Source: Escherichia phage RB16
Sequence record: NC_014467.1
DNA: 64,000 nucleotides
Direction: 5' to 3' (one strand)
In this document: one piece after another, positions 49,466 to 60,732 of the stretch
Layout: the number at the start of each line of letters is the position of its first letter
Numbering within the stretch: the first letter of the stretch is position 1
Program-made: the position numbers and the translations under genes
Notes under the pieces: model-generated
What the model was told of the DNA's origin: nothing
The model's input: only the letters and a program-made list of their open reading frames with translations
Database searches by the model: none

Positions 49466-49473
49466 TATAAATA
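49466..49473 (+). promoter_or_regulatory. T4-type late promoter TATAAATA upstream of gp34
   Basis: Exact TATAAATA about 32 nt before the gp34 start. Confidence 0.6.
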
Positions 49474-49504: not shown

Positions 49505-52500
49505 ATGGTAGCTAAATCATTCCGCGCCACAAGTGGCCTTGATGCTGCTGGCGAAAAAGTTATCAACGTTGGTAAAGCATCCCGCTCTGTGTTGAGCGAC
49601 GGCGTGAACGTTGACTTTTTTAACGAATTTAACACGATCCAACAATACGATTCTACCCGTGGTTATGCTGCGTTTATGGCTATCATGTACGCGCGTCGTA
49701 TTTGGTACGCTCGCGCAGATATTCCATCACCAGCGGGTGCTTTCGATGAAACAAAATGGATCTCAACCCGTAACGATCCAAAATGGGTATATAACAACGT
49801 AACCAGCGCTGACGGTCTCCCTATTGAGTCCGGCACGTACTTAATGGCTGATGGTCGTTTCTCTGAACTGACCTATATTCTGCCAGATTCCCCTGTTGAG
49901 GGTGATATTATCACCATTAAAGACGGTGGCGGTCTTGCAGGTGTAAACAACCTGTTGGTTCGTTCAAACACCCGACAGATCCGTTTGCGTGATATTCAGT
50001 CAAGCTCTTATCGTCTGACTCACCCATACATGACCGTAGCGTTTATCTTTAACGGTAACTTATGGCGTGTTGCTGAAATGCGTGATAACCGCGATTCGCA
50101 GTTTGTGAACGCAACAGGCGCGGGTTCTTTCCAACTACAAGCGGGTATGACAACGTTTCGTAATAGCGGTACTGGTAAAATCACTCTTCAATTGCCGAAA
50201 TATGCAAACGATGGTGACTCTATCACTACCTACGATCTCGATAAACTCAGTTCGGTAAACGTTGCAACTTTACAGGTATATCCTGGTAGCGGTCACACTA
50301 TCACTTATGATAGCATTAACGGCGTAACCTCTGTTGCTTCACAGCGTTCAGGTTATGGTGTGTTTATCTTTGATCAGACTAACAACCGCTGGGTTGTCTA
50401 TGATGGGGATAACCGCGTTCGTCTGCGTCGTATCAGTGACGACCTGAACATGCTCCCGAATGATTATGTTTTCGTTACTCCTATTGCTGGGAACCCTCCT
50501 ACAGTACGTAACGTAACATTAACCCTCCCGCAAGATGTTGCAGAAGGGGATCGCGTGTACATCAGTATGTACATGATGGGTAAAACGCAGAACTGTACGA
50601 TCAAGGTTAAAGATGGTTCCGGTGAAACGATCCGCACCAACAAAAACATGATGCAGTTCCCACAGCGTAAGGATTATCCGCCTAATGATTGGTTCAGTGT
50701 TGACACTCTGACTTTCAACGCCGATACTGACTACCTTCCATACATGGAATTGTCGTATCTGAAAGCTACGAAAGAATGGGTAGTTGCACAATATCGCCCA
50801 ATCATTGAACGTGTCGATCCAACAAACCGTTCTCGTCTGGGTGTGATCGCGCTGGCTACACAAGCAGAAGTAAACAAAAACTTGGAAGATTTACCGTCTG
50901 ATGAACTGGCAGTAACCCCGCGCACACTGGCGAATAAAACCGCTACTGAAACGCGTCGTGGTATTGCTCGACTCGCAACGACAGCAGAAGTTAACCAGAA
51001 CACAACGGCTACTTTCTTGGATGACGTAATCGTAACGCCTAAAAAGCTAAACGAACGTACAGCAACGGAAGATCGTCGCGGTGTGCTGGAAATCGCAACC
51101 CAGGCAGAAACAAACGCGGGTACTGATGACACTACCGCAATAACGCCTAAGAAGCTCGATACGCGTCGTGCAAGCGAAACCTTAGCAGGTATCGGAAAAC
51201 TTGTCACAACGGGTGCTACGACAGCGGAGGGGGCTTTACGTGGGGATGCAGGGACTAACGTCTACAACTTCAACAACGGTGTTGATCTGATCACTCCTAA
51301 ATCGTTGAACGAGAAGACGGCGACCGAAAAATCGAAAGGTTTAGTTGTTCTGGCAACGGAAAACGAAGTTATTACGGGCGCTGCTGCTGGATCTGCTACC
51401 ATGCCGATCGTAGTCACTCCCGAAATGCTTCACCGTAAGACAGCAACAGAAACGCGTATCGGTTTGATTGAAATTGCAACTCAGGCAGAAACGAACACGG
51501 GAACCGATGATTTACGGGCGGTTACTCCGAAGAAACTGAATGATCGCAAAGCAACAGAAGCCCTTGATGGTATTATCGCGCTGGCAAGCACTTCCGAAAT
51601 TGCAGCAGGGACAGTAACCAATAAAGCGGTTGTTCCGGTGAAACTGAAAGAGTTCTTCGATGTTACTGGACATATTGCGGTTGCAACTGATGATGGTTTG
51701 ACTCAATCCGGTACTATCTGGACAACGGTTAACCTGGGGATTGCGTCTGCTACTGAAACACAGCGCGGTACTTTACGTGTTGCGACTCAGGGTGAAACTG
51801 ATGCGGGTACTCTGGATACCGTGTTCATTACGCCTAAAAAACTGCAAGCGAAGAAAGCGACGGATACCGCCGAAGGTATTATTCGTTGTGCGACTAACGC
51901 GGAAGCGGGTGCGGGTACTGCTACTAACTTGGCAATTACTCCGGCTACCATGCAGTTCTTGAACGGTACTGATCCGGCTTGGGGTGCTACAACATTGCGC
52001 CGTGGTGCGGTGTTTATCACTACCAAATCGAATACGTTCATCGGTGATAATCTGGTTGGTTCTACTCAGCCTGTAGATAGCTATCTGGAAGATTTCTACG
52101 CTGTATCGCCTCGCGGTCTGAACTTTGCTCTGCAAAACTTCTTACCGAAAATGGCAACAGCACAGAATAGCTTGAGTCTGGGCGGTGTGGTAGCTGCAAG
52201 CTGGATGCGTCGTGATGCGGATCAAACCGTAACGGGCAACAACACGTTCAACGGTACAAGCAACTTTGTTGGTAATGTAACAACTAACGGGACTCTGACG
52301 GCTAACGCTGCGGTAACTGTTAACAACACCGTAACAACAAACAATAACATTAACCAGTCTGCGAAAGCAAACACGGTTTATGCTAATACTGTTTTGAGTA
52401 CGGCAACCGCTGGAACTAAAAACTTGCTTCGTACCTTCCGTGGCGGTGTGACGGATACTACCTGGCATGAAACTGTTCAGGCAAGCGTGTATCGACTGGC

Positions 52501-53164
52501 AACAGGTACAACGGATCTGGTTGATGTTCTGACTGTAGGTGATATCAGTAACGGTGCTCTGGCGTACTACGGTACGAACATTCGCCTGAATGGTAAAGCC
52601 CTGGCTAACATCAACACTGCTGGTGATCTGTTTGTTGCAAGTGATGCGACTCCTACGGTACAATTACGAACCGCTGCAACTAACGGTTGGAACGGTGTAA
52701 CAATCAGTAACGATAACGGGACAACCACTGCAACCGTGATCAACACCCGAAACTTTACCCAGCATCTTGACAGTACCTATGTCAATACAGCGGGTGATAC
52801 TATGACTGGTGCGCTGTCAGTTAGCGTAAACGGCACGGGTGGACGCTTTACCAGTGTGAGCGGTACGGCACATGTTCAGGCGGGTGATTTCTCTGGTAAC
52901 GTCCAGAAGATGCGCTTAACTGGCATTGACGATAAGGTATTGACTGAATTCAATATCAATATCACCGATTACAACAAAGCGATGATCAACGGAAACCTGA
53001 TCTATCATGCAGGTCGTAAACCAACTCCGGCAGAAATTGGGGCGGTTGCGGTTGCGGGTTCAACTGTAGATACTCTGGTTGTTCGTGATTACATCAAAAT
53101 CGGAAACGTAAAAATCTTCGCAAATCCAACAACTAAGACTTGTGAATTTGTGTGGGAGGAATAA
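49505..53164 (+). CDS. gp34: Long tail fibre proximal subunit gp34
   Basis: 1219 aa; matches T4 gp34 as recalled (RLGVIALATQA, TATETRRGIARLATTAEVNQNT, TPKKLNERTATE, ATQAETNAGTDDTT, C-terminal IRDY..IGNV.I). T4 gp34 is 1289 aa. Confidence 0.9.
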   Translation: MVAKSFRATSGLDAAGEKVINVGKASRSVLSDGVNVDFFNEFNTIQQYDSTRGYAAFMAIMYARRIWYARADIPSPAGAFDETKWISTRNDPKWVYNNVTSADGLPIESGTYLMADGRFSELTYILPDSPVEGDIITIKDGGGLAGVNNLLVRSNTRQIRLRDIQSSSYRLTHPYMTVAFIFNGNLWRVAEMRDNRDSQFVNATGAGSFQLQAGMTTFRNSGTGKITLQLPKYANDGDSITTYDLDKLSSVNVATLQVYPGSGHTITYDSINGVTSVASQRSGYGVFIFDQTNNRWVVYDGDNRVRLRRISDDLNMLPNDYVFVTPIAGNPPTVRNVTLTLPQDVAEGDRVYISMYMMGKTQNCTIKVKDGSGETIRTNKNMMQFPQRKDYPPNDWFSVDTLTFNADTDYLPYMELSYLKATKEWVVAQYRPIIERVDPTNRSRLGVIALATQAEVNKNLEDLPSDELAVTPRTLANKTATETRRGIARLATTAEVNQNTTATFLDDVIVTPKKLNERTATEDRRGVLEIATQAETNAGTDDTTAITPKKLDTRRASETLAGIGKLVTTGATTAEGALRGDAGTNVYNFNNGVDLITPKSLNEKTATEKSKGLVVLATENEVITGAAAGSATMPIVVTPEMLHRKTATETRIGLIEIATQAETNTGTDDLRAVTPKKLNDRKATEALDGIIALASTSEIAAGTVTNKAVVPVKLKEFFDVTGHIAVATDDGLTQSGTIWTTVNLGIASATETQRGTLRVATQGETDAGTLDTVFITPKKLQAKKATDTAEGIIRCATNAEAGAGTATNLAITPATMQFLNGTDPAWGATTLRRGAVFITTKSNTFIGDNLVGSTQPVDSYLEDFYAVSPRGLNFALQNFLPKMATAQNSLSLGGVVAASWMRRDADQTVTGNNTFNGTSNFVGNVTTNGTLTANAAVTVNNTVTTNNNINQSAKANTVYANTVLSTATAGTKNLLRTFRGGVTDTTWHETVQASVYRLATGTTDLVDVLTVGDISNGALAYYGTNIRLNGKALANINTAGDLFVASDATPTVQLRTAATNGWNGVTISNDNGTTTATVINTRNFTQHLDSTYVNTAGDTMTGALSVSVNGTGGRFTSVSGTAHVQAGDFSGNVQKMRLTGIDDKVLTEFNINITDYNKAMINGNLIYHAGRKPTPAEIGAVAVAGSTVDTLVVRDYIKIGNVKIFANPTTKTCEFVWEE

Positions 53165-53169
53165 TTTAA

Positions 53170-54771
53170 ATGGCGAATAACGAATTTATGGCGTTATTCG
53201 GCCCTGATAGTTTCACGGCGAATGTGTTTTCAGAAGCAAACGCCGTGAAATATCGCCTTGTTGTCCGTGGAACGAATAACGATTCTGCGGTCAACTCGGT
53301 TGAGGTATCTATTAACGGGGCTGATATTATAAACAGACGAACACAAGCTGCTCGCGGAATTAACCTGGCTGTCATTGATGGAACAACTTTAGCATTATTG
53401 GATTACAAAGCATTCGATATGTATGGTGATCCTGCTACGAACGGGAATGCGATTAAAGACTACCTGAATTCACTTCCAGCGAACAGAATTGTGTGTTTTT
53501 ATACTTTCGATGCTATCAAAAGTGACGATGACTTTTTAGCAACAATGAGGAAAATAGGTTCTGTTGCGTGGCCTGAAACTCGGTTCTTTAATATCCCGAT
53601 CACCACAACCAATTATTCTCACCGTTCATCCTATTCAGCTATCTATTCATCTACGATGAAAAAGATTTGCATGGAAAACTTTGTCGGTGGTGCTGGTAGC
53701 CTGAAAGACAATACGACGAGTTTTGTTGAAGTTGTGTTTGATGAATTCAGTGATATCGGGGTAACTGGTATTCCAGAAAGAATGGTCGATGATGTCCAGA
53801 CATACCAGACATACCAGAATAGCGGGGATCTTTATGGCTTCCACTCTTACGGGACGTGGATTGTTGGTAGTGATGTTTTTCTGGGCGATATCTTCAAATT
53901 CACGGGTGAACTATATTGTTCGCAAGAACTTCGTGATGCAGGGGGGGAAGTTCACCTGTATATGTGGACTGAAAACAGTACCGGACAATGGATCACATCA
54001 ACCATTCTTCGAACAACTGGATTAGCCCCCGATCAGTGGCATTCATTATCAGGATATTTCACTGTTCCGTCAGATCCAGTAAACACCAAAATGGGTTCGC
54101 AGGTATATCATTATCCGTCTACCGTTAAAGTGAGGCTGGCGCAATGTCGCAACGTCCAGATCACAAAAGTACCTCGCGAAGAAATAAACCGGAATGGTGC
54201 TGCGCTTGGTGTGAACGGTGTTCGAATGCAGACACTTTCCGAAGTGGACGCAAGCGGAAATGAGAACCCGATTGATAAATTGCTTTCTCTACCCGTTTCG
54301 CCTACTGGTGTTGCAAGTGATAAGAAAATCATTTCGCATAACTTTGCTGAACTTGATTATATTGTTTCTGATCCGGTTGAATACACTTCGACAAATACAG
54401 CGGAGTACCAGTTCAAAGAATGGACTGCTACCCAGCAAGCGGCGGTAACGAAAGCATCACTAAGCAGTTATGGCTTAAAAGCTGGTGATACGATTCGTAT
54501 GCAATGCCAAATGAAACGCGATGTGAACGCAATCACTAACGGTAAAAGCGCGTATATCATAATACAGTTCTGGGACGCGAATAATACGTATATCTCAGGG
54601 ATCAACATGCGCGATGTTGGTACGATCCCTAACGTATATTCATTCTACAAAAACGAAGGGGTTATTCCTGCTGGTGCTGTTACGTTTGATTTCGGTTTAT
54701 ACCGTTATCCAAACAACACAAACATCGGTACGGTATCGGCTAAAGACGTTAAACTGTCAATCGTGAGATAA
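53170..54771 (+). CDS. Tail-fibre-locus protein in the gp35 (hinge) position; identity uncertain
   Basis: 533 aa ORF between gp34 and the gp36-like distal fibre genes; no motif recognised. Confidence 0.35.
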   Translation: MANNEFMALFGPDSFTANVFSEANAVKYRLVVRGTNNDSAVNSVEVSINGADIINRRTQAARGINLAVIDGTTLALLDYKAFDMYGDPATNGNAIKDYLNSLPANRIVCFYTFDAIKSDDDFLATMRKIGSVAWPETRFFNIPITTTNYSHRSSYSAIYSSTMKKICMENFVGGAGSLKDNTTSFVEVVFDEFSDIGVTGIPERMVDDVQTYQTYQNSGDLYGFHSYGTWIVGSDVFLGDIFKFTGELYCSQELRDAGGEVHLYMWTENSTGQWITSTILRTTGLAPDQWHSLSGYFTVPSDPVNTKMGSQVYHYPSTVKVRLAQCRNVQITKVPREEINRNGAALGVNGVRMQTLSEVDASGNENPIDKLLSLPVSPTGVASDKKIISHNFAELDYIVSDPVEYTSTNTAEYQFKEWTATQQAAVTKASLSSYGLKAGDTIRMQCQMKRDVNAITNGKSAYIIIQFWDANNTYISGINMRDVGTIPNVYSFYKNEGVIPAGAVTFDFGLYRYPNNTNIGTVSAKDVKLSIVR

Positions 54772-54792
54772 AGGGGCGAAAGCCCCTTTTTC
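54771..54792 (+). terminator. Hairpin plus T-run
   Basis: aaggggcgaaagcccctttttc. Confidence 0.55.
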
Positions 54793-54799
54793 ATAAATA
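54792..54799 (+). promoter_or_regulatory. Late-promoter variant CATAAATA
   Basis: CATAAATA about 24 nt before the 54823 start; one mismatch to TATAAATA. Confidence 0.35.
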
Positions 54800-54822
54800 C
54801 AGTCATTACAGGAGAAATTTTT

Positions 54823-56970
54823 ATGGCTGATTTGAAATTAGGCACAACGCTGGGTGGTGCGGGTATCTGGAGTGCGTCAAACCTCCCTCTGTTGCCCTCT
54901 GGCGACAGATTGACGTATAAAGGGTGGAGAGTATACACCGAAAACGATCGTCCAACAGCGGAGGATATAAACGCCCTCTCGACGATCAACGGCGGTACTG
55001 TTGCGAAGAACACCACGTTCAACCAAAGCGTGACCGTAGGTATTAACTTAACAGCGAACACGCTGTATTCAAAAAGTTATGTCGATATCACCACGGGCGG
55101 GGCTGCTCCGGGTATATTGTTTAAACGTTCTGATGTGACGGGAACACCTTCAACCGAACAGGGCATTATGCAAATCACTGGGGTTAATGCTTCCGGCGTT
55201 GCGCTGGCAACTCTGAATATTAACGCCCGTGCTGACGGTGGTAACAGGATCTATCTGAACGCATACAAAAACGGAACAACAAATACTTCCTTTGTTGTTG
55301 ATTCTGCGAATCAACAGGTATCCGTTGAACTAGGTTCTTTCCGTGTAGCCGGATCATCGACCTTCGCTGCGGTGAGCGCAACCACGTTAAACGTAAGCGG
55401 GGCAATTACTGCTAATACGGTAACTCCTACTGATTGGACAAACCACGATAACCGTTATATCACGGGTATTCCTCGCAGTATGCAGGGAAACAGTTTTGGT
55501 GCTGCTGTTGTAACCGAAAAGAACGATGTTCTGTCAGTTGGTGGTAACGTGATCGATGGGCCTTATGGTAACACTACATATTCTGGTCAGGTTTCGACAT
55601 ATCGACGCACGTTGAATAGTGGTGTATCACTGGTTCAAACTTACTATGACACAAATTCATCATGGATTCGAAGCGGTTCTGGTTCTCCTGGTGCTTGGTC
55701 TTGGTCTGCTGGCGACGCTAATGGTTGGCGACGGATTTATGATACTGCTACTCCGCCAACTCCGGCAGAAGTAGGGGCAGTAAACAAAGCTGGAGATACC
55801 ATGAGTGGTGTTTTAACACTGGCACCTATTTCTCAACCGCTTAAAACGCAAGGCGGTGGTGTTTTTGCGAATGACGGAAACGTGTATATCAATAAAGGAG
55901 GATTTGCTGGATGGATTGATGATTTGTTCTTTAAAAATACAGGAGGTGTTGTAACAGGGACAATCAACCAGGACGGCCTTAATTCTAATGTTTATTGTAC
56001 TTCTGCATTGAGCATAACCGCAACAGGTTCGAAGAATTATCTTCGTCGTTTCCGTGGTGGTAATGGCGACCAGATCTGGCATGAAACTGTTCAGGGCGGC
56101 ACGTATCGTTTAGCAACAGGTGATACAGACTCTGCAAATTTACTTACTATTGAAAGTTCTGGCAACATGATTCTTAACGGTTCTCAAGGTGGTTCATCAA
56201 CCCTATTCCTTGATGCTGACAGTAACAGTGTAGTTTGGTATCGTATGATTAATGGTACGGAAAAGGCAGTAACCTTTGCAAGTAATGACGGTGTATACCA
56301 TATCAGAACAAATAACGTCAGATCAAATACTTGGGATTTTAGAGCGGGTATGATTCTGAACCTGGGCATTTGTTCTGGTTCAGATTATGCATTGATTCGT
56401 GGTACTCCTGATGGTGGCGGTTTGGATCAGTGGCGTGAGCGTTCCTCTGGTTTACAGATCGATATGCCTAACGGTTCTACCTCAGCATATAACATCTGGA
56501 AAGCTACCGTATGGGACGCAACTCATGTTGCTGCTATGGATGTGCATATTCCAAATAATGATGGCGCACAAGCTCGCGTCCGATTGATTCACCAAAGCGG
56601 TGCATATTATCACTTTGATGGTAGCGGTCAATTTACTGCATCTGGTAATGGCAACTTCAACGATGTTTATATTCGTTCTGATGAAAGACTGAAAAGTAAT
56701 CTCAGTAAGATCGAATCTGCATTGGATAAAGTCGATTTGTTGGAAGGTGTGATCTATGATAAAGCGGATCATGTCGGCGGTGAACCTACGTCCCGCGAAG
56801 CTGGTTTGATTGCACAACAACTGCGCGAAGTATTACCGGAAGCGGTTAAAACTGGTGAAGACACCGAAAGGAATGAAATCTTAACGGTTTCTCCGACTGC
56901 GGTTATTGCCTTGCTTGTCAACGCAATTAAAGAACTCCGCGAGGAAATCAGGGAACTTAAATCCCGCTAA
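54823..56970 (+). CDS. Distal long tail fibre protein 1 (gp36-like N-terminus, C-terminal intramolecular chaperone domain)
   Basis: 715 aa; N-terminus MADLKLGTTLGG..IWSASNLPLLPSGD.LTYKGWRVYTENDRPT resembles T4 gp36; C-terminus NDVYIRSDERLKSNL...GLIAQQL resembles the S74 self-cleaving chaperone motif. Confidence 0.7.
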   Translation: MADLKLGTTLGGAGIWSASNLPLLPSGDRLTYKGWRVYTENDRPTAEDINALSTINGGTVAKNTTFNQSVTVGINLTANTLYSKSYVDITTGGAAPGILFKRSDVTGTPSTEQGIMQITGVNASGVALATLNINARADGGNRIYLNAYKNGTTNTSFVVDSANQQVSVELGSFRVAGSSTFAAVSATTLNVSGAITANTVTPTDWTNHDNRYITGIPRSMQGNSFGAAVVTEKNDVLSVGGNVIDGPYGNTTYSGQVSTYRRTLNSGVSLVQTYYDTNSSWIRSGSGSPGAWSWSAGDANGWRRIYDTATPPTPAEVGAVNKAGDTMSGVLTLAPISQPLKTQGGGVFANDGNVYINKGGFAGWIDDLFFKNTGGVVTGTINQDGLNSNVYCTSALSITATGSKNYLRRFRGGNGDQIWHETVQGGTYRLATGDTDSANLLTIESSGNMILNGSQGGSSTLFLDADSNSVVWYRMINGTEKAVTFASNDGVYHIRTNNVRSNTWDFRAGMILNLGICSGSDYALIRGTPDGGGLDQWRERSSGLQIDMPNGSTSAYNIWKATVWDATHVAAMDVHIPNNDGAQARVRLIHQSGAYYHFDGSGQFTASGNGNFNDVYIRSDERLKSNLSKIESALDKVDLLEGVIYDKADHVGGEPTSREAGLIAQQLREVLPEAVKTGEDTERNEILTVSPTAVIALLVNAIKELREEIRELKSR

Positions 56971-56971
56971 T

Positions 56972-56999
56972 TAAAAGCCCTTCGGGGCTTTTTCTTTTT
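56972..56999 (+). terminator. Rho-independent terminator
   Basis: ttaaaagcccttcggggctttttctttt. Confidence 0.65.
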
Positions 57000-57006
57000 A
57001 TAAATA
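56999..57006 (+). promoter_or_regulatory. T4-type late promoter TATAAATA upstream of the second distal fibre gene
   Basis: Exact TATAAATA about 27 nt before the ATG at 57033. Confidence 0.6.
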
Positions 57007-57032
57007 TCATAAAAGCATTTGAGGATCTAATA

Positions 57033-59492
57033 ATGGCAGATTTAAAAGCGGGTACTACCATCGGTGGTAATACTATATGGAGTCAGGCTAACTTGCCTTT
57101 GCTCCCAACTGGAAACACATTAACGTATAAAGGCTTTAAAGTCTATACCGAAAACGACAAACCGACAAAAGCCGAAATCGGTCTGGGTAACGTAACAAAC
57201 GACGCACAGGTCAAAAAGTCCGGCGACGATATGACAGGCGATCTGACGTTAAAGAACAACACACAATTGACTGTTCCGCGTCGTATTAACCTGGTTGCTG
57301 ATACTGCTGCTGTAGCGCCTGTTCTTTTGGTTACTCGTTCAGACAATAACGCGATTACTGATCCGTTTCCTTCTTCTGAAACACGCGTGTATACGTTTTT
57401 GGCAAACACAACGTCGAACACCTCAGATCCGTCTGCGGGTGCTATTTTGACTGCTCACGTTGTCAACCAGAAGCCTAGTGGTGCTGGTGCAATGGAATTT
57501 CAAGTATATGCAGCACCAAATAAGACAACTGGCGCAAGTGGTCGGTTAACATCAAAGTTTAGAATGAGCGGTGATGATGGCGCGGTTTCTCTAACAGGTA
57601 GCTCTTTTACTGTTGGAATGACAACGACAATTAACTATAATTTATACGCGAATGAACTCATTTCGAAAGGGGCAGGAAACCGTAACGTAACTATGCAAGA
57701 CACAAACGGCAACGAACTAGCTATGCTGTTTGCAGATACGGGTAAGAACCTGTATGTTCGTACTGGTGGTTCATATGTATCTCGTTTCGCTGCTGATGGC
57801 ACTCTTATTCTGGCTAACGGCTTGACTGTTCCGCGTCAGGTATTTGTTAACGGTGCTTCACTTCCAGTGAACAATGGTCAAGTTCGACTTGATACAAGCG
57901 CTGATGGAAACGCTGTTGGTGACGGTGCAACGCATCTTGGTATGAAATTAGAAGATGGGAAATATTATCATTATTTCCGTGGTGCTGGTGTGATGTACAT
58001 TGACATGAAAGGTGGAATATCTTCTTCAACCCCGTTGTATATGAATGGAGTTGATCAAGCAATACCTAAAGTTGAAATGCTATCTACTGGTGCTGCTGGT
58101 GCTAAAAACTTTTTGCGGCGGTTCCGTGGTGGTCTTGTTGATACCATATGGCATGAAACTGTTCAGGGTGGTGATTACCGATTAGCAACAGGGGATACCG
58201 ATGCGGATTATCAGTTAAGAATTACTGCTGATGGTGCTAATAGAGGTGGTTATGTATTTGGTGGTACGTTTACGGCTGATCGCGGTAATGATGGATTCAA
58301 GATCCGTTATAAACCTGATACCGAATCAGCAATGTTCCAGATCTGGAACAGGGATACATCAGTATTGAACTCTTATTTCGGATACGGGTCAAGTAATCAG
58401 GCAACAGTTAGCCTGTATAACCGTTTAGGTGATATTGGCGTTTCTACTCCAAACGCGGCGTTCCGTCTGGATAATACTACGTTAACTCTTGGTAACTCTT
58501 CATCTGCGGAAGCCAGTCAACGTGCGTTTACTATCAGGAACTGGGGTGATGGTGAATTTCGTGCTGCGGTTTTTGAAGTCAATGATGGTACTGGTTATCA
58601 TTTCTATAGTCAACGCAGATCCGATAACGTGGTTGAGGCAGCATTCTCCGGCGACCTTTATACCAACGGAACATTACGCGCACAGAACAACATAATTGTT
58701 CGTGGTAGTAATGGCCTAGAAATTCGTTCTGACGGAACCCGTCATGTTTGGTTTAAGGATAACGCGGGAACTGAAAAAGCAGTATTATATGCAGAGAATA
58801 ACGGCAGCGTAAACCTACGTACATCAAACCAACAGTATTCTCTTGCGATTGCTGATGGTATGATCCGAGCAACCGGACAACCAACTACAGGGGATTCACG
58901 AGGTCTTATTCGAGGTGCTGTTACTGGTGGTGCGTTTGCCGCATGGCGCGATCGTCCTGCTGGTTTGTTGCTTGATTGTCCAGATTCATATAATCAGGCA
59001 TACAACATATGGAAAGCGACTCACTGGGGTGTTGCTCACTTAGCATCTATGGATGTGCATAACGGCAGTAACTCCCCTATGGTACTCATGCACGTTGGTG
59101 GTGGAGAATTCAATTTTACCGCTGCTGGTACTCTTACTGTCACTGGTGGAATTTATGCTAGTGTTAACGGTGACTTTAACGATGTGTATATTCGTTCAGA
59201 TATCCGGTTGAAATCTAACCTGGTTGAACTGAAAGATGCACTCAGTAAAGTTGAACAGCTTAAAGGTTATATCTACGATAAGAAACTGAATGTCGAAGAT
59301 GAAGAACCACAGCATCGAGAAGCTGGTATTATTGCTCAGGATCTGCAAAAGGTATTACCAGAAGCAGTAAAAGAGAATGAAGATACTGGCATGTTAACAA
59401 TATCTCCTTCTGGTGTGAATGCACTTTTAGTCAACGCAATCAACGAATTGCGTGAACGTCTGGAAGCAATCGAACGGAAAATAGGGGCGTAA
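57033..59492 (+). CDS. Distal long tail fibre protein 2 (paralog; gp36-like N-terminus, divergent middle, C-terminal intramolecular chaperone domain)
   Basis: 819 aa; N-terminus MADLKAGTTIGGNTIWSQANLPLLPTGNTLTYKGFKVYTENDKPT; C-terminus NDVYIRSDIRLKSNL...GIIAQDL; shares the FRGG..D.IWHETVQGG.YRLATGDTD module with fibre 1 and gp34. Confidence 0.7.
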   Translation: MADLKAGTTIGGNTIWSQANLPLLPTGNTLTYKGFKVYTENDKPTKAEIGLGNVTNDAQVKKSGDDMTGDLTLKNNTQLTVPRRINLVADTAAVAPVLLVTRSDNNAITDPFPSSETRVYTFLANTTSNTSDPSAGAILTAHVVNQKPSGAGAMEFQVYAAPNKTTGASGRLTSKFRMSGDDGAVSLTGSSFTVGMTTTINYNLYANELISKGAGNRNVTMQDTNGNELAMLFADTGKNLYVRTGGSYVSRFAADGTLILANGLTVPRQVFVNGASLPVNNGQVRLDTSADGNAVGDGATHLGMKLEDGKYYHYFRGAGVMYIDMKGGISSSTPLYMNGVDQAIPKVEMLSTGAAGAKNFLRRFRGGLVDTIWHETVQGGDYRLATGDTDADYQLRITADGANRGGYVFGGTFTADRGNDGFKIRYKPDTESAMFQIWNRDTSVLNSYFGYGSSNQATVSLYNRLGDIGVSTPNAAFRLDNTTLTLGNSSSAEASQRAFTIRNWGDGEFRAAVFEVNDGTGYHFYSQRRSDNVVEAAFSGDLYTNGTLRAQNNIIVRGSNGLEIRSDGTRHVWFKDNAGTEKAVLYAENNGSVNLRTSNQQYSLAIADGMIRATGQPTTGDSRGLIRGAVTGGAFAAWRDRPAGLLLDCPDSYNQAYNIWKATHWGVAHLASMDVHNGSNSPMVLMHVGGGEFNFTAAGTLTVTGGIYASVNGDFNDVYIRSDIRLKSNLVELKDALSKVEQLKGYIYDKKLNVEDEEPQHREAGIIAQDLQKVLPEAVKENEDTGMLTISPSGVNALLVNAINELRERLEAIERKIGA

Positions 59493-59517: not shown

Positions 59518-60042
59518 ATGGCAATTGTTGGAGTACCTGGCTGGATCGGGTCATCTGCTGTAGCTGAAACTGGACAGCGCTGGATGTCTGCTGCGGGTAG
59601 TGCTGTTCGTATCGGTGCGCCTTTCTGGATGTCTCAAATGGCAGGTCAATCGGTATATAACATTTATATTCCAATTTACGATCGATATTATAACGGTATT
59701 CGTTATCGTGGGTGTTGGGGGACGGGTTGGAACTTCCCATATTCTAAACCTGGTTGGAACGCTACTCCTGGTGGTAGTTTTAACGGGCTGGCTTACGGGA
59801 CTTGTGTTGCAGTGCAAAACTATCTCGATGGCGAATATAGCGTATTAACTATTCAAAACGGTCCTGCTGCAAACTTCCGACTCACTACTGATGACGGCGC
59901 GGTGTTCAACTTCGTTGATACCGGAAGATATGATTCAGGTTATAGAAACTACAAAATCGATCCGACTCAACATTTTGTATGGTTCAATTATCTTAACGCT
60001 CGTGTAGGACAAATAAGGCAAGGATTGGTAGCTATAAGATAA
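59518..60042 (+). CDS. Hypothetical Trp/Gly/Tyr-rich protein at the gp38 position (possible fibre-associated protein)
   Basis: 174 aa; between the distal fibre and holin t, where T-even phages carry gp38; no sequence similarity to T4 gp38 recognised. Confidence 0.3.
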   Translation: MAIVGVPGWIGSSAVAETGQRWMSAAGSAVRIGAPFWMSQMAGQSVYNIYIPIYDRYYNGIRYRGCWGTGWNFPYSKPGWNATPGGSFNGLAYGTCVAVQNYLDGEYSVLTIQNGPAANFRLTTDDGAVFNFVDTGRYDSGYRNYKIDPTQHFVWFNYLNARVGQIRQGLVAIR

Positions 60043-60090: not shown

Positions 60091-60732
60091 ATGGCGCTAT
60101 TACAAGATAAATTGGCGGTGCTTGAACGGGTAATATCGTTCATCATGGCAGTCAAAACATGGAAACAACTTTTCATTAAATTGGTTCTTATCGTTACTAT
60201 ATTCATTATGTTTGTTACGTGGTACAAGTGGGATGACTTATTCGCAGTCTGGAAATCATCGAGCGTCATAGACGTTCCGACGATGGAGGTTGAAAAAGCA
60301 AAAAAGTTTGAATCCGCATCCATTGAACAGTTAAACATAGTGCATTTAACTACGGGTGCGGATTTTTCGGCAGTCTTTGGGTTCAGACCTAAGAATGTTA
60401 ATTATTTTGTTGATATAATTGCGTATGAAGGGAAGTTACCACACCAGATAAATCCGAAAAATTTGGGGGGCTATCCTATAGACAAAACATCGGAAGAATA
60501 CAACAGACATATAAACGGGCTGTACTACGTTTCACACGTCGCCAGCCCGTATATTCCGACCAAAGATCTTGTTCCGGTTGCCTATACCTTTAGTTGTCCT
60601 TACTTCAATCTCGAAAACTACTATTCAGGATCAATCTTAATGGAATGGTATAAGCAGAAGCCCGAAGTCACCGATATGAAGTTAATGATCGTGTGCAATC
60701 AGGCCGCTAGAATTTTAGGCAGGATTCGATGA
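60091..60732 (+). CDS. t: Holin T
   Basis: 213 aa; single N-terminal TM segment; matches T4 holin T as recalled (EQL.IVH....ADFSAV..FRPKN.NYFVDIIAYEGKLP, LGGYP.DKT..EY..H.NG, SCPYFNL.N.Y.G.I.M.WY, QAARILGR). Confidence 0.9.
   Translation: MALLQDKLAVLERVISFIMAVKTWKQLFIKLVLIVTIFIMFVTWYKWDDLFAVWKSSSVIDVPTMEVEKAKKFESASIEQLNIVHLTTGADFSAVFGFRPKNVNYFVDIIAYEGKLPHQINPKNLGGYPIDKTSEEYNRHINGLYYVSHVASPYIPTKDLVPVAYTFSCPYFNLENYYSGSILMEWYKQKPEVTDMKLMIVCNQAARILGRIR

Follow-up and report, generated by a model that had tools for sequence, protein, structure and literature searches.

Two tandem tail fibre genes in the long-tail-fibre locus of coliphage RB16 as candidate alternative distal half-fibres

The long-tail-fibre locus of coliphage RB16, a phage of the RB43-like Pseudotevenvirus group, contains two tandem genes, here called A and B, that probably specify two complete distal half-fibres, each attaching independently to the knee and together giving the phage two binding options. 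The locus lies in a 64,000-nucleotide stretch of the RB16 genome (NC_014467.1), referred to below as the window, and all features described here are on its plus strand. Fibre A (715 aa, ADJ55562.1) is encoded at 54823..56970 and fibre B (819 aa, ADJ55563.1) at 57033..59492; they correspond to the RB43 proteins 'gp 36-37.1' and 'gp 36-37.2', respectively. Each gene would encode the whole subunit of a distal half-fibre, with no separate small gp36. On the basis of sequence comparisons, we favour this arrangement over a serial one in which a gp36 is followed by a gp37.

The locus itself is already known. The fibre A, fibre B and gp38 proteins of the window are exactly identical to the RB16 GenBank proteins ADJ55562.1, ADJ55563.1 and ADJ55564.1. 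The RB43 record AY266307, deposited in 2003, labels the same pair gp 36-37.1 and gp 36-37.2, followed by gp 38, and the gp36-like N-termini, the duplication and the short gp38 adhesin have all been described for the RB43/RB16/RB42 locus by Trojet et al. 2011 (PMC3157838), who left the fibre-gene duplication unexplained and its function open. The duplication has therefore been in print since 2003-2011 but has never been explained. A literature search on the name '36-37.1' returned unrelated papers only, and in the literature on Pseudotevenvirus fibres we found no virion proteomics, electron microscopy or genetic data for either A or B. The RB43/RB42 locus has no structural difference from that of RB16 and is the same locus. 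In RB16 it is a mosaic, with gp35 and A of the GAP161 type and B and gp38 of the RB43/Lw1 type. The same layout, two tandem MADLK-type fibres between a gp35 of about 530 aa and gp38/holin, is found in 13 aligned relatives and about 50 genomes. Note that the phage collection scanned did not include the RB16 accession HM134276, and that a scan of IMG/VR yielded only three Pseudotevenvirus loci.

Upstream of A lie the genes for the proximal half-fibre and the knee. The proximal subunit gp34 (49505..53164, 1219 aa, PHROG 972) is 39% identical to T4 gp34 over its full length. The knee protein gp35 (53170..54771; PHROG 1154, Pfam ILEI) is of a long form, 533 aa compared with 372 aa for T4 gp35. T4 gp35 aligns with residues 5-395, and its segment 218-296 aligns a second time, with residues 424-506. 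A direct BLAST comparison for this internal repeat gives no significant result (E 0.48); the repeat shows up only in the comparison with T4 gp35 and in the predicted structure. The AlphaFold2 model (mean pLDDT 76) consists of a FAM3/ILEI-like domain and two CBM-like beta-sandwich domains, shows secondary-structure elements in the same order in residues 241-334 and 441-532, and is matched by Foldseek to tandem CBM22/CBM51 and FAM3/POMGnT1 stem domains. At the other end, the holin gene t (60091..60732; Pfam Phage_holin_T, 9e-54) closes the fibre locus as in T4.

The initial annotation described A and B as tandem paralogues that begin almost identically, diverge through most of their length and end in a conserved domain, and this description stands. 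Both open reading frames are present, and three regions match when A is compared with B by BLASTP. The one at the N-terminus (residues 1-190 of A, 1-201 of B, E 3e-20) includes the first 45 or so residues, which are nearly identical, and the C-terminal match covers the last 274-282 residues (45% identity, E 4e-65). Between these, the central regions align only at one 52-residue motif, KN(Y/F)LRRFRGG..IWHETVQGG.YRLATGDTD (56008-56163 in A, 58080-58235 in B; E 5e-18), a third copy of which, KN.LR.FRGG..WHETVQ, is found in gp34 at 52394-52537. The motifs SD.RLKSNL and G(L/I)IAQ.L, quoted earlier as the mark of the conserved end, occur in both C-terminal regions.

The claim that the N-termini are gp36-like was likewise borne out by comparison with T4 gp36. 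The N-terminus of A (residues 1-72, 54823-55038) matches T4 gp36 residues 1-72 with 47% identity (BLASTP, E 4e-19), and that of B (residues 1-89, 57033-57299) matches residues 1-80 with 39% identity (E 2e-15). The pattern MADLK.G.T..G..IW...N...P.G is common to A, B and the gp36 proteins of T4, S16 and Karamvirus, while neither N-terminus matches that of T4 gp37. In contrast, PF03903, the body domain of gp36 (residues 56-195 in T4), has no match in A or B even at E values up to 10, although T4 gp36 itself scores 178 bits, and the RB16 fibre locus contains no separate gp36 gene of about 220 aa. Of gp36, A and B thus have the N-terminal segment only, and they are not gp36 proteins. Their central shaft segments match T4 gp37. 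The order of parts in each subunit would thus be a gp36-type segment of about 70 residues, by which the fibre would attach to the gp35/gp34 knee, then a shaft resembling gp37, a variable tip of the T2/S16 type (residues 449-618 of A, 56167-56676; residues 552-721 of B, 58686-59195), and a C-terminal S74 chaperone.

The chaperone domains form the last 97 residues of A (619-715, 56677-56967) and the last 98 of B (722-819, 59196-59489). Alignment to the S74 family agreed with the earlier assignment, since both proteins match Pfam Peptidase_S74 (PF13884) well above the gathering score, A (619-676) with 52.8 bits and B (722-780) with 59.7 bits against a cut-off of 22, and both cover profile positions 1-58 of 58. 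The two chaperone domains are 58% identical, and both C-termini match the S16 gp37 tip (PDB 6F45_A). The predicted scissile bonds are Arg618-Ser619 in A (Ser codon 56677-56679) and Arg721-Ser722 in B (Ser codon 59196-59198). The catalytic dyad has the form Ser-x4-Lys in both, S619-D-E-R-L-K624 in A and S722-D-I-R-L-K727 in B, a spacing equal to that of Ser1264 and Lys1269 in T5 pb1 (PMC4690869). The SD..LK dyad and the S74 domains are invariant in both copies across 13 phages. By homology, each chaperone is expected to trimerise the fibre and then to cleave itself off before Ser619 or Ser722, which would leave mature chains of 618 (A) and 721 (B) residues. The S74 domain had been taken as the mark of a fibre unlike that of T4. 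It is correct that a T4-type tip and a T4-type gp38 chaperone are absent; however, an S74-bearing gp37 is not unusual because it is the norm among T-even-like phages, to which T4 is the exception.

The same contrast with T4 had overlooked an adhesin gene of the T2/S16 gp38 type that begins 25 nt past B (59518..60042, 174 aa, ADJ55564.1; Gp38_N 77.7 bits, 6e-22; PHROG 1121). Since the 25-nt gap has no late promoter, gp38 appears to be co-transcribed with B. The protein aligns to PDB 6F45_D (residues 6-48), and its N-terminal docking domain contains three tryptophans, W9, W22 and W37. It has no polyglycine-sandwich domain: it contains 13% glycine and zero GGG runs, compared with 22-23% glycine and 2-4 GGG runs in the gp38 proteins of S16, JC221, Karamvirus CW742 and UPEC03. 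This short RB43-type gp38 of 174 aa has been described as a distinct kind of adhesin, and in RB43 and RB42 gp38 is an experimentally shown host-range determinant, with mutations at Q100; all host-range mutations published so far are in gp38 (PMC3157838). Fibres of the T2/S16 type lose their S74 domain by cleavage, and the tip is then capped by a gp38 monomer (PMC9569957, PMC6851490). Given the gp38-capped fibre type and the host-range mutations in RB43 and RB42, the receptor specificity of at least B would lie in gp38 and not in the fibre itself; that is, gp38 would cap the newly exposed base of B and read the receptor.

For A, no gp38-type gene was found, and there is no second gp38-like open reading frame within the 64-kb window. 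With one gp38 gene for two fibres that end in S74 tips, A would have to share gp38 or function uncapped. Capping of A by gp38 is possible, as judged from its tip, which is of the 'WKAT.W...H.AAMDVH' type, like those of B and of Karamvirus gp37; in the Karamvirus locus a gp38 gene lies directly downstream. The residues before the cleavage site were considered as a discriminator between capped and uncapped fibres and rejected, since GNGNFNDVYIR is kept in both classes. Across relatives, gp38 covaries with the B tip (r 0.85) far more than with the A tip (r 0.22), a difference that is confounded by physical linkage.

Both genes have their own expression signals. Upstream of A are a hairpin, GGGGC-GAAA-GCCCC, with a T-run (54773-54791; -16.3 kcal/mol, z -5.8), a near-consensus late promoter, CATAAATA (54792-54799), which matches at 7/8 positions, and the Shine-Dalgarno sequence AGGAG (54810-54814), and this arrangement is nearly invariant in 12 relatives. 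After A there is a terminator-like hairpin, AAAAGCCC-TTCG-GGGCTTTT, with a T-run (56973-56992; -11.1 kcal/mol), and then the exact late promoter TATAAATA of B (56999-57006) and its Shine-Dalgarno sequence GAGGA (57021-57025). The 65-nt spacer between A and B is almost identical among 12 relatives. TATAAATA occurs 9 times in the window, all on the plus strand, compared with 2.7 expected by chance; one of these copies (49466-49473) is upstream of gp34. The initial annotation took the promoter of B and the hairpin after A as signs of independent expression. Both elements are in place, but they do not indicate special independent regulation, because the layout is the same in T4, which has one late promoter for gene 36 and another for genes 37-38 (PMC3004832), and A likewise has its own upstream hairpin and CATAAATA.

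Comparison with relatives indicates that the two copies are old and maintained. Loci with two fibres recur across a clade in which gp35 identity is down to 42-48%. In distant two-fibre loci, the first fibre is matched by A (E 1e-64 to 1e-90) and the second by B, with E values of 1e-33 to 1e-138 in four of six such loci and only about 1e-20 in the other two (L054 and L057). By these matches, A and B are positional orthologues across the long-gp35 clade and ancient paralogues of each other. Position is also reflected in N-terminal signatures, W(S/N/H)(A/G)S in the first fibre and W(S/T/N)Q in the second. The ratio dN/dS is about 0.2 for both A and B, and 0.14-0.18 for the chaperone domain of A, which indicates purifying selection on both genes. 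The most variable segments are the tips, with 45-48% mean pairwise identity. At least four unrelated types can be distinguished among the A tips, the N-terminus of B is 94% conserved, and in some relatives the A and B tips are unrelated to each other (18-25% identity). In three of the loci (L055, L057 and L058) each fibre has an adhesin or chaperone gene of its own; in L056 this was found for fibre 1 only, the contig ending inside fibre 2.

A single fused fibre is enough in POP12 and JC221, whose gp35 is of the same long form and which have only one fibre of the MADLK type; because of these two phages, the idea that the long gp35 is an adaptation to two fibres was rejected as a rule. Four viable relatives, RB43 AY967407, Lw1, UPEC03 (a partial genome) and IME-CF2, have a disrupted gene A, which suggests that it is dispensable there, although sequencing or assembly errors may lie behind some of these disruptions. 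Apart from RB43 AY967407 and Lw1, the 13 aligned relatives have an intact A, as do EkoM5VN and two genomes from metagenomes, and among about 50 genomes the 5' end of A is intact with only four exceptions. The N-terminus of B is intact in all 60 of the records listed. Loss of A through growth on E. coli was considered and rejected, as A is intact in RB16 and in three of the four RB43 records.

The database names imply instead a serial fibre, in which A sits on the knee and loses its chaperone, the N-terminus of B docks on the base of A, and B with gp38 forms the tip. This corresponds to T4 genes 36 and 37-38 in gene order and transcription layout, and the summed length of mature A and B, 1339 aa, is close to the 1247 aa of T4 gp36 and gp37, a point that counts against two separate fibres; moreover, the segment NG.FNDVYIR before the cleavage site, kept in all A tips, could be a common docking base. 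Nevertheless, we consider the serial fibre quite unlikely. B has the same knee-type N-terminus as A and as the sole fibre of POP12 and JC221; four viable phages have a disrupted A; and an internal segment would not need the adhesin or chaperone genes that accompany the first fibres of L055-L058. The tips of A are also of four or more unrelated types, in contrast to the conserved N-terminus of B, and identical bases and N-termini would permit uncontrolled A-A or B-B chaining. Finally, Trojet et al. (PMC3157838) report a virion fibre whose size points to just one gp37 trimer. Trojet et al. 2011 raised two other options. In one, only B with gp38 is in the virion, and A is unexpressed, conditional or being lost. 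The disruptions of A, its less than exact promoter beside the exact consensus of B, and the restriction of published host-range mutations to gp38 would all fit, but A has an intact 5' end in nearly all genomes, low dN/dS, an invariant catalytic dyad, nearly invariant upstream signals, and shaft orthologues in distant two-fibre loci (E down to 1e-90), which makes this option very unlikely. The other option, random co-assembly of A and B into mixed trimers of one fibre kind, might be suggested by the similarity of their chaperone domains and last 280 or so residues. It is extremely improbable, however, since a triple beta-helix requires chains in register, whereas the mature chains differ by 103 residues, their central regions cannot be aligned outside the 52-residue motif, and the two tips of relatives are sometimes unrelated or have different chaperone systems.

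A forked fibre, with A and B trimers together on one knee and two distal branches on each of the six fibres, would retain both proteins as complete half-fibres. The position-specific N-terminal signatures, kept across a deep clade, suggest non-identical docking environments, the gp35 of the clade has an extra beta-sandwich domain repeating the second domain of T4-type gp35, and the T5-like phages DT57C and DT571/2 (LtfA/LtfB) offer a precedent. On the other hand, POP12 and JC221 have a long gp35 with one fibre, the duplicated CBM-like domains (best folds tandem CBM22/CBM51) are more simply read as binding sugar or fibritin, and RB43-like phages are described as having the shape of T4, with no report of forked fibres; we regard forking as unlikely. 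The preferred reading is that A and B attach independently to the knee, so that a phage would carry two kinds of distal fibre. Both proteins would then be present in virions, either on separate fibres or together on one, and dual receptor specificity, as proposed initially, is plausible. Extended to the whole long-gp35 clade, the idea would be that two distal halves serve two receptor classes, in its boldest form on a forked knee, with the first fibre lacking or sharing gp38 and the second receptor dispensable on some hosts; in this general form it is quite unlikely.

The T4-like long tail fibre is the textbook example of a serially assembled adhesin with a single specificity and a main target of host-range engineering. 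If RB43-like phages routinely carry two complete half-fibres, their host range, which concerns Escherichia, Citrobacter, Enterobacter, Cronobacter and Klebsiella, would be set by two independently recombining modules, and the names 'gp36 small' and 'gp37 large distal subunit' used in databases would be misleading.

Among known systems, the distal half-fibre of T2/T6/S16 (gp36, gp37 and gp38; PDB 6F45), with which RB16 shares a homologous gp38 N-domain and tip end, also has its chaperone removed, after which a monomer of gp38 uses three tryptophans to dock on the base thus exposed (PMC6851490, PMC9569957). RB16 differs in that its fibres combine the gp36 N-terminal segment and a gp37-like shaft in one protein and lack the gp36 body domain, that there are two such fibres, and that gp38 is only 174 aa long and has no polyglycine sandwich. 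With the gp36/gp37/gp38/gp57A system of T4, RB16 shares the gene order 34-35-(36)-(37)-38-t, the late-promoter layout, and the matches of the N-terminal 72-89 residues to gp36 and of shaft segments to gp37; unlike T4, it has neither a needle tip nor a T4-type gp38 chaperone, and its fibres end in S74 domains. The LtfA and LtfB fibres of the T5-like phages DT57C and DT571/2, which Golomidova et al. 2016 reportedly call branched in their title, are said to be paralogous, to bear chaperone domains and to provide two receptor specificities on one virion. These phages are reportedly siphoviruses, in which LtfB sits on LtfA rather than on a knee protein and there is no gp38-type cap. The Aeromonas phage Aeh1 has a tandem duplication of g37 with a small ORF after each copy (PMC3157838); it is similar to RB16 in duplicating the distal fibre of a T4-like phage, and to the metagenomic loci L057 and L058 in having accessory genes for each fibre, but belongs to a different subgroup with a different tip and chaperone system. 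The K1F endosialidase and T5 pb1 (PDB 3GW6, 4UW8) have in common with A and B the Pfam family, the Ser-x4-Lys spacing and the C-terminal site on a trimeric fibre; the mature tip of pb1, however, binds the receptor itself, whereas at least B of RB16 is expected to be capped by gp38.

Four genes on the + strand separate the proximal fibre gene gp34 (49505-53164, +) from the holin gene t (60091-60732, +; T holin by PHROG and Pfam). PHROG and Pfam assignments identify gp35 (53170-54771, 533 aa) as the proximal connector, ORF A (54823-56970, 715 aa) and ORF B (57033-59492, 819 aa) each as a 'long tail fiber distal subunit' with a C-terminal Peptidase_S74 domain (S74), and a 174-aa ORF (59518-60042) as a gp38-type tail fibre adhesin (Gp38_N, 77.7 bits). 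By exact-sequence look-up, the last three are ADJ55562.1, ADJ55563.1 and ADJ55564.1 of Escherichia phage RB16, which was isolated on E. coli B/5 (PMC2993671); Megablast of the window places it in Pseudotevenvirus, within the RB43/GAP161 group. The RB43 record deposited in 2003 has the same arrangement, with genes named 'gp 36-37.1', 'gp 36-37.2' and 'gp 38' and its own annotation of an N-terminus resembling that of gp36, and Trojet et al. (2011), who name RB16 explicitly, stated that RB43 and Aeh1 'have duplications of g37' (PMC3157838). The locus itself is thus not new, and what had been left open was its function alone. The initial annotation was right on every point of its observation of two fibre paralogues and partly right in its interpretation; its key omission was the gp38 adhesin 3' of B.

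Alignment of A with B yields three blocks: an N-terminal one, in which the ~45 opening residues are near-identical as originally described, a 52-residue motif, and the final ~280 residues, which are 45% identical (E 4e-65) and confirm the proposed conserved C-terminal domain. The predicted gp36-like N-termini are also recovered: residues 1-72 of A and 1-89 of B match the T4 gp36 N-terminus (residues 1-72/80) with 47% (E 4e-19) and 39% (E 2e-15) identity, respectively. Neither protein matches the T4 gp37 N-terminus or contains the Pfam gp36 body domain PF03903 (T4 gp36 residues 56-195), and the central parts of both match the T4 gp37 shaft. Judged by the gp36 matches and the absence of PF03903, what A and B have of gp36 is the N-terminal segment for knee attachment alone, followed by a gp37-like shaft. 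The 52-residue motif, KN(Y/F)LRRFRGG..IWHETVQGG.YRLATGDTD, is the counterpart of T4 gp37 residues 219-273 and has one further copy in gp34. In the looser form KN.LR.FRGG..D..WHETVQ...YRLATG.TD (~50 residues), it occurs once each in gp34 (52394-52537), A (56008-56163) and B (58080-58235) with 58-67% identity, possibly as a recombination linker or a common structural node.

Both C-termini match Pfam Peptidase_S74, the family against which they were to be checked, as well as the solved S16 gp37 tip (6F45_A). The S74 domain begins at S619 in A and S722 in B, each with a lysine five residues downstream, and this dyad is unchanged in either copy across the 13 phages aligned. The spacing equals that in T5 pb1, in which the Thr1263-Ser1264 bond is cut and Ser1264 is paired with Lys1269 (PMC4690869). 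By homology, cleavage at these serines would leave mature proteins of 618 (A) and 721 (B) residues.

A self-cleaving chaperone of this kind is found on gp37 of most T-even-like phages, T4 being the exception, and once it is removed one gp38 monomer binds the exposed base via three tryptophans (PMC9569957; PMC6851490). The RB16 gp38 ORF starts 25 nt 3' of B; its product aligns with S16 gp38 over residues 8-49 and has tryptophans W9, W22 and W37, and it lacks the polyglycine domain (13% Gly, no GGG runs). Since no late promoter lies between B and gp38, the two form one unit. The 174-aa gp38 of RB43/RB42, phages whose receptors are the LPS core and OmpF, is the site of the host-range mutations Q100K/R (Trojet et al. 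2011, PMC3157838). The tip of A, the segment preceding the predicted cleavage site, is of the 'WKAT.W...H.AAMDVH' type, as are the B tip and gp37 of one Karamvirus, in which gp38 directly follows gp37; A may either use gp38 as well or bind unaided.

Other loci show further arrangements of tip genes. In Pseudotevenvirus UPEC03, the gp38 adjoining a B tip of type II is glycine-rich, 270 aa long and of T2/T6 type, rather than of the 172-174-aa type (L049, 8947-9759); therefore, gp38 classes appear exchangeable on the B-type fibre. On a T4-like contig of 171 kb, where gp35/gp36/gp37 are classical, two successive gp38-N-domain ORFs (171 and 214 aa) follow gp37 (L031, 7727-8929) and would be two alternative adhesins serving one fibre. 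Prophage-like loci (L020, 7962-8868; also L021, L024 and L036) encode a ~1120-1176-aa fibre whose tip and S74 domain are ~45% identical to those of A and B, followed, where one gp38 would stand, by three tandem paralogous ORFs of ~100 aa that begin MGYW.., MAGW.. and MAFW.., all contain FDIPNGW and might together make up a tip cap in three pieces. In L023, which belongs to this prophage type too, a single 168-aa gp38-like ORF takes their place.

Homologues of the long gp35 (515-531 aa, identity down to 40%) led to further loci, in which all fibre genes after gp35 open with MADLK.G.T..G..(I/L)W. Two of these loci, from Pectobacterium phage POP12 (800 aa, without S74 domain or gp38) and Yersinia phage JC221 (816 aa, with S74 and a 262-aa T6-type gp38), encode just one fibre of this kind; a whole distal half-fibre is thus built from one fused protein. 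In the six two-fibre metagenomic loci, RB16 A matches the first-position fibres from residue 1 to 333-502 (37-41% identity, E 1e-64 to 1e-90), and B matches the second-position fibres of four over its first 200-400 residues (40-53%, E 1e-33 to 1e-138); in the other two (L054, L057) the match to B is short (E ~1e-20) and no better than that of B to first-position fibres. The N-terminal signatures also differ by position, W(S/N/H)(A/G)S in the first fibre and W(S/T/N)Q in the second. Together with the position-wise matches, they mark the A/B paralogy as ancient; tips and accessory genes have been swapped independently.

We aligned gp35, A, B and gp38 of 13 phages. Mean pairwise identity is 86-94% in the N-termini of A and B and 80-84% in their chaperone domains, and variation is greatest over the 170 residues preceding the cleavage site (45-48% identity; lowest pairs 18-25%), with at least four mutually unrelated tip types in A and two in B. 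RB16 itself is mosaic, combining a gp35 and an A of GAP161 type (94-99% identity) with a B (74-84%) and a gp38 (90-94%) of RB43/Lw1 type. The two similarity tracts overlap at 56647-57818, covering the conserved A chaperone, the spacer and the B N-terminus; the conserved block spanning spacers, chaperone domain and N-terminus is ~1.2 kb. dN/dS is ~0.2 for both A and B, and both are under purifying selection.

Gene A is broken near its 5' end in four phages: RB43 AY967407 (1-nt deletion, L002 ~6330; A is intact in three other RB43 records), Lw1 (net 14-nt deletion, L008 ~2315), UPEC03 (91-nt tandem duplication leading to a stop, L049 4323-4705) and IME-CF2 (two frameshifts, L003 6300-8571). B is intact in all four, and its N-terminus in 60 of the 60 records listed. 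Errors of sequencing or assembly may account for some of these disruptions; as a set, the four suggest that A is dispensable for growth on the propagating host.

We consider it probable that A and B are complete distal half-fibres. Both would attach to the knee through their gp36-type N-termini, and gp38 would cap B, so that the phage would have two binding options. That A and B instead form a fork is unlikely. The serial arrangement implied by the database names, in which A links the knee to B, is somewhat less likely still: the summed length of A and B matches that of T4, but the apparent dispensability of A is hard to square with an obligatory link, and the lone fused fibre of POP12 and JC221 is a whole distal half-fibre. 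Moreover, a subunit lying internally in a serial fibre would have no need of a tip adhesin or chaperone of its own, yet first fibres elsewhere have them. In L055 (9637-14731), an S74 domain and a dedicated 156-aa gp38-type adhesin belong to the first fibre, while the second uses a lambda-gpK-type assembly protein (Caudo_TAP-like chaperone) whose gene lies upstream of that fibre rather than downstream. In L057 and L058 a separate small accessory gene comes after each fibre, and in L056 an assembly-protein gene follows the first fibre, the contig ending within the second.

That just one of the two copies is used is at odds with the long-term conservation of A, and we give it slightly less weight than the serial arrangement; mixed trimers of A and B are very improbable, given that the two differ in length and diverge in their tips. 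The interest that remains is in an old question that can now be tested sharply: do these T4-like phages carry distal fibres of two kinds?

The knee protein itself is longer in RB16 than in T4 (533 versus 372 aa). T4 gp35 aligns to residues 5-395, and its residues 218-296 align a second time, to residues 424-506. An AlphaFold2 model (mean pLDDT 76) predicts three domains: an FAM3/ILEI-like domain (~28-190), a beta-sandwich (~203-334) and, after a low-confidence linker, another beta-sandwich (~395-533) with the same order of secondary-structure elements. This extra domain is absent from gp35 of T4, S16 and Karamvirus. Foldseek recovers FAM3/POMGnT1 stem domains and tandem carbohydrate-binding modules (CBM22/CBM51), the latter and the POMGnT1 stem domain being the best matches, a hint that carbohydrate could be a ligand of the knee. 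The extra domain resembles a module for binding sugar or protein more than a second docking site; single-fibre phages have it as well, so it does not decide between the fibre models.

The spacers before A (54772-54822) and B (56971-57032), each containing a hairpin, a late promoter and a ribosome-binding site, are near-invariant in 12 relatives; among those phages, the fibre genes on either side diverge by as much as 50%. Upstream of A, on the + strand, are CATAAATA and the stronger hairpin (-16.3 kcal/mol). Before B, an exact TATAAATA (56999-57006, +) follows a hairpin and T-run (-11.1 kcal/mol); this sequence occurs nine times in the window, only on the + strand, against a chance expectation of 2.7. 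The late promoter before B and the terminator-like element after A, from which independent expression had been proposed, are both present. In T4, gene 36 is served by one late promoter and genes 37-38 by a second (PMC3004832); A and B-gp38 have the same layout, which therefore says little about special regulation.
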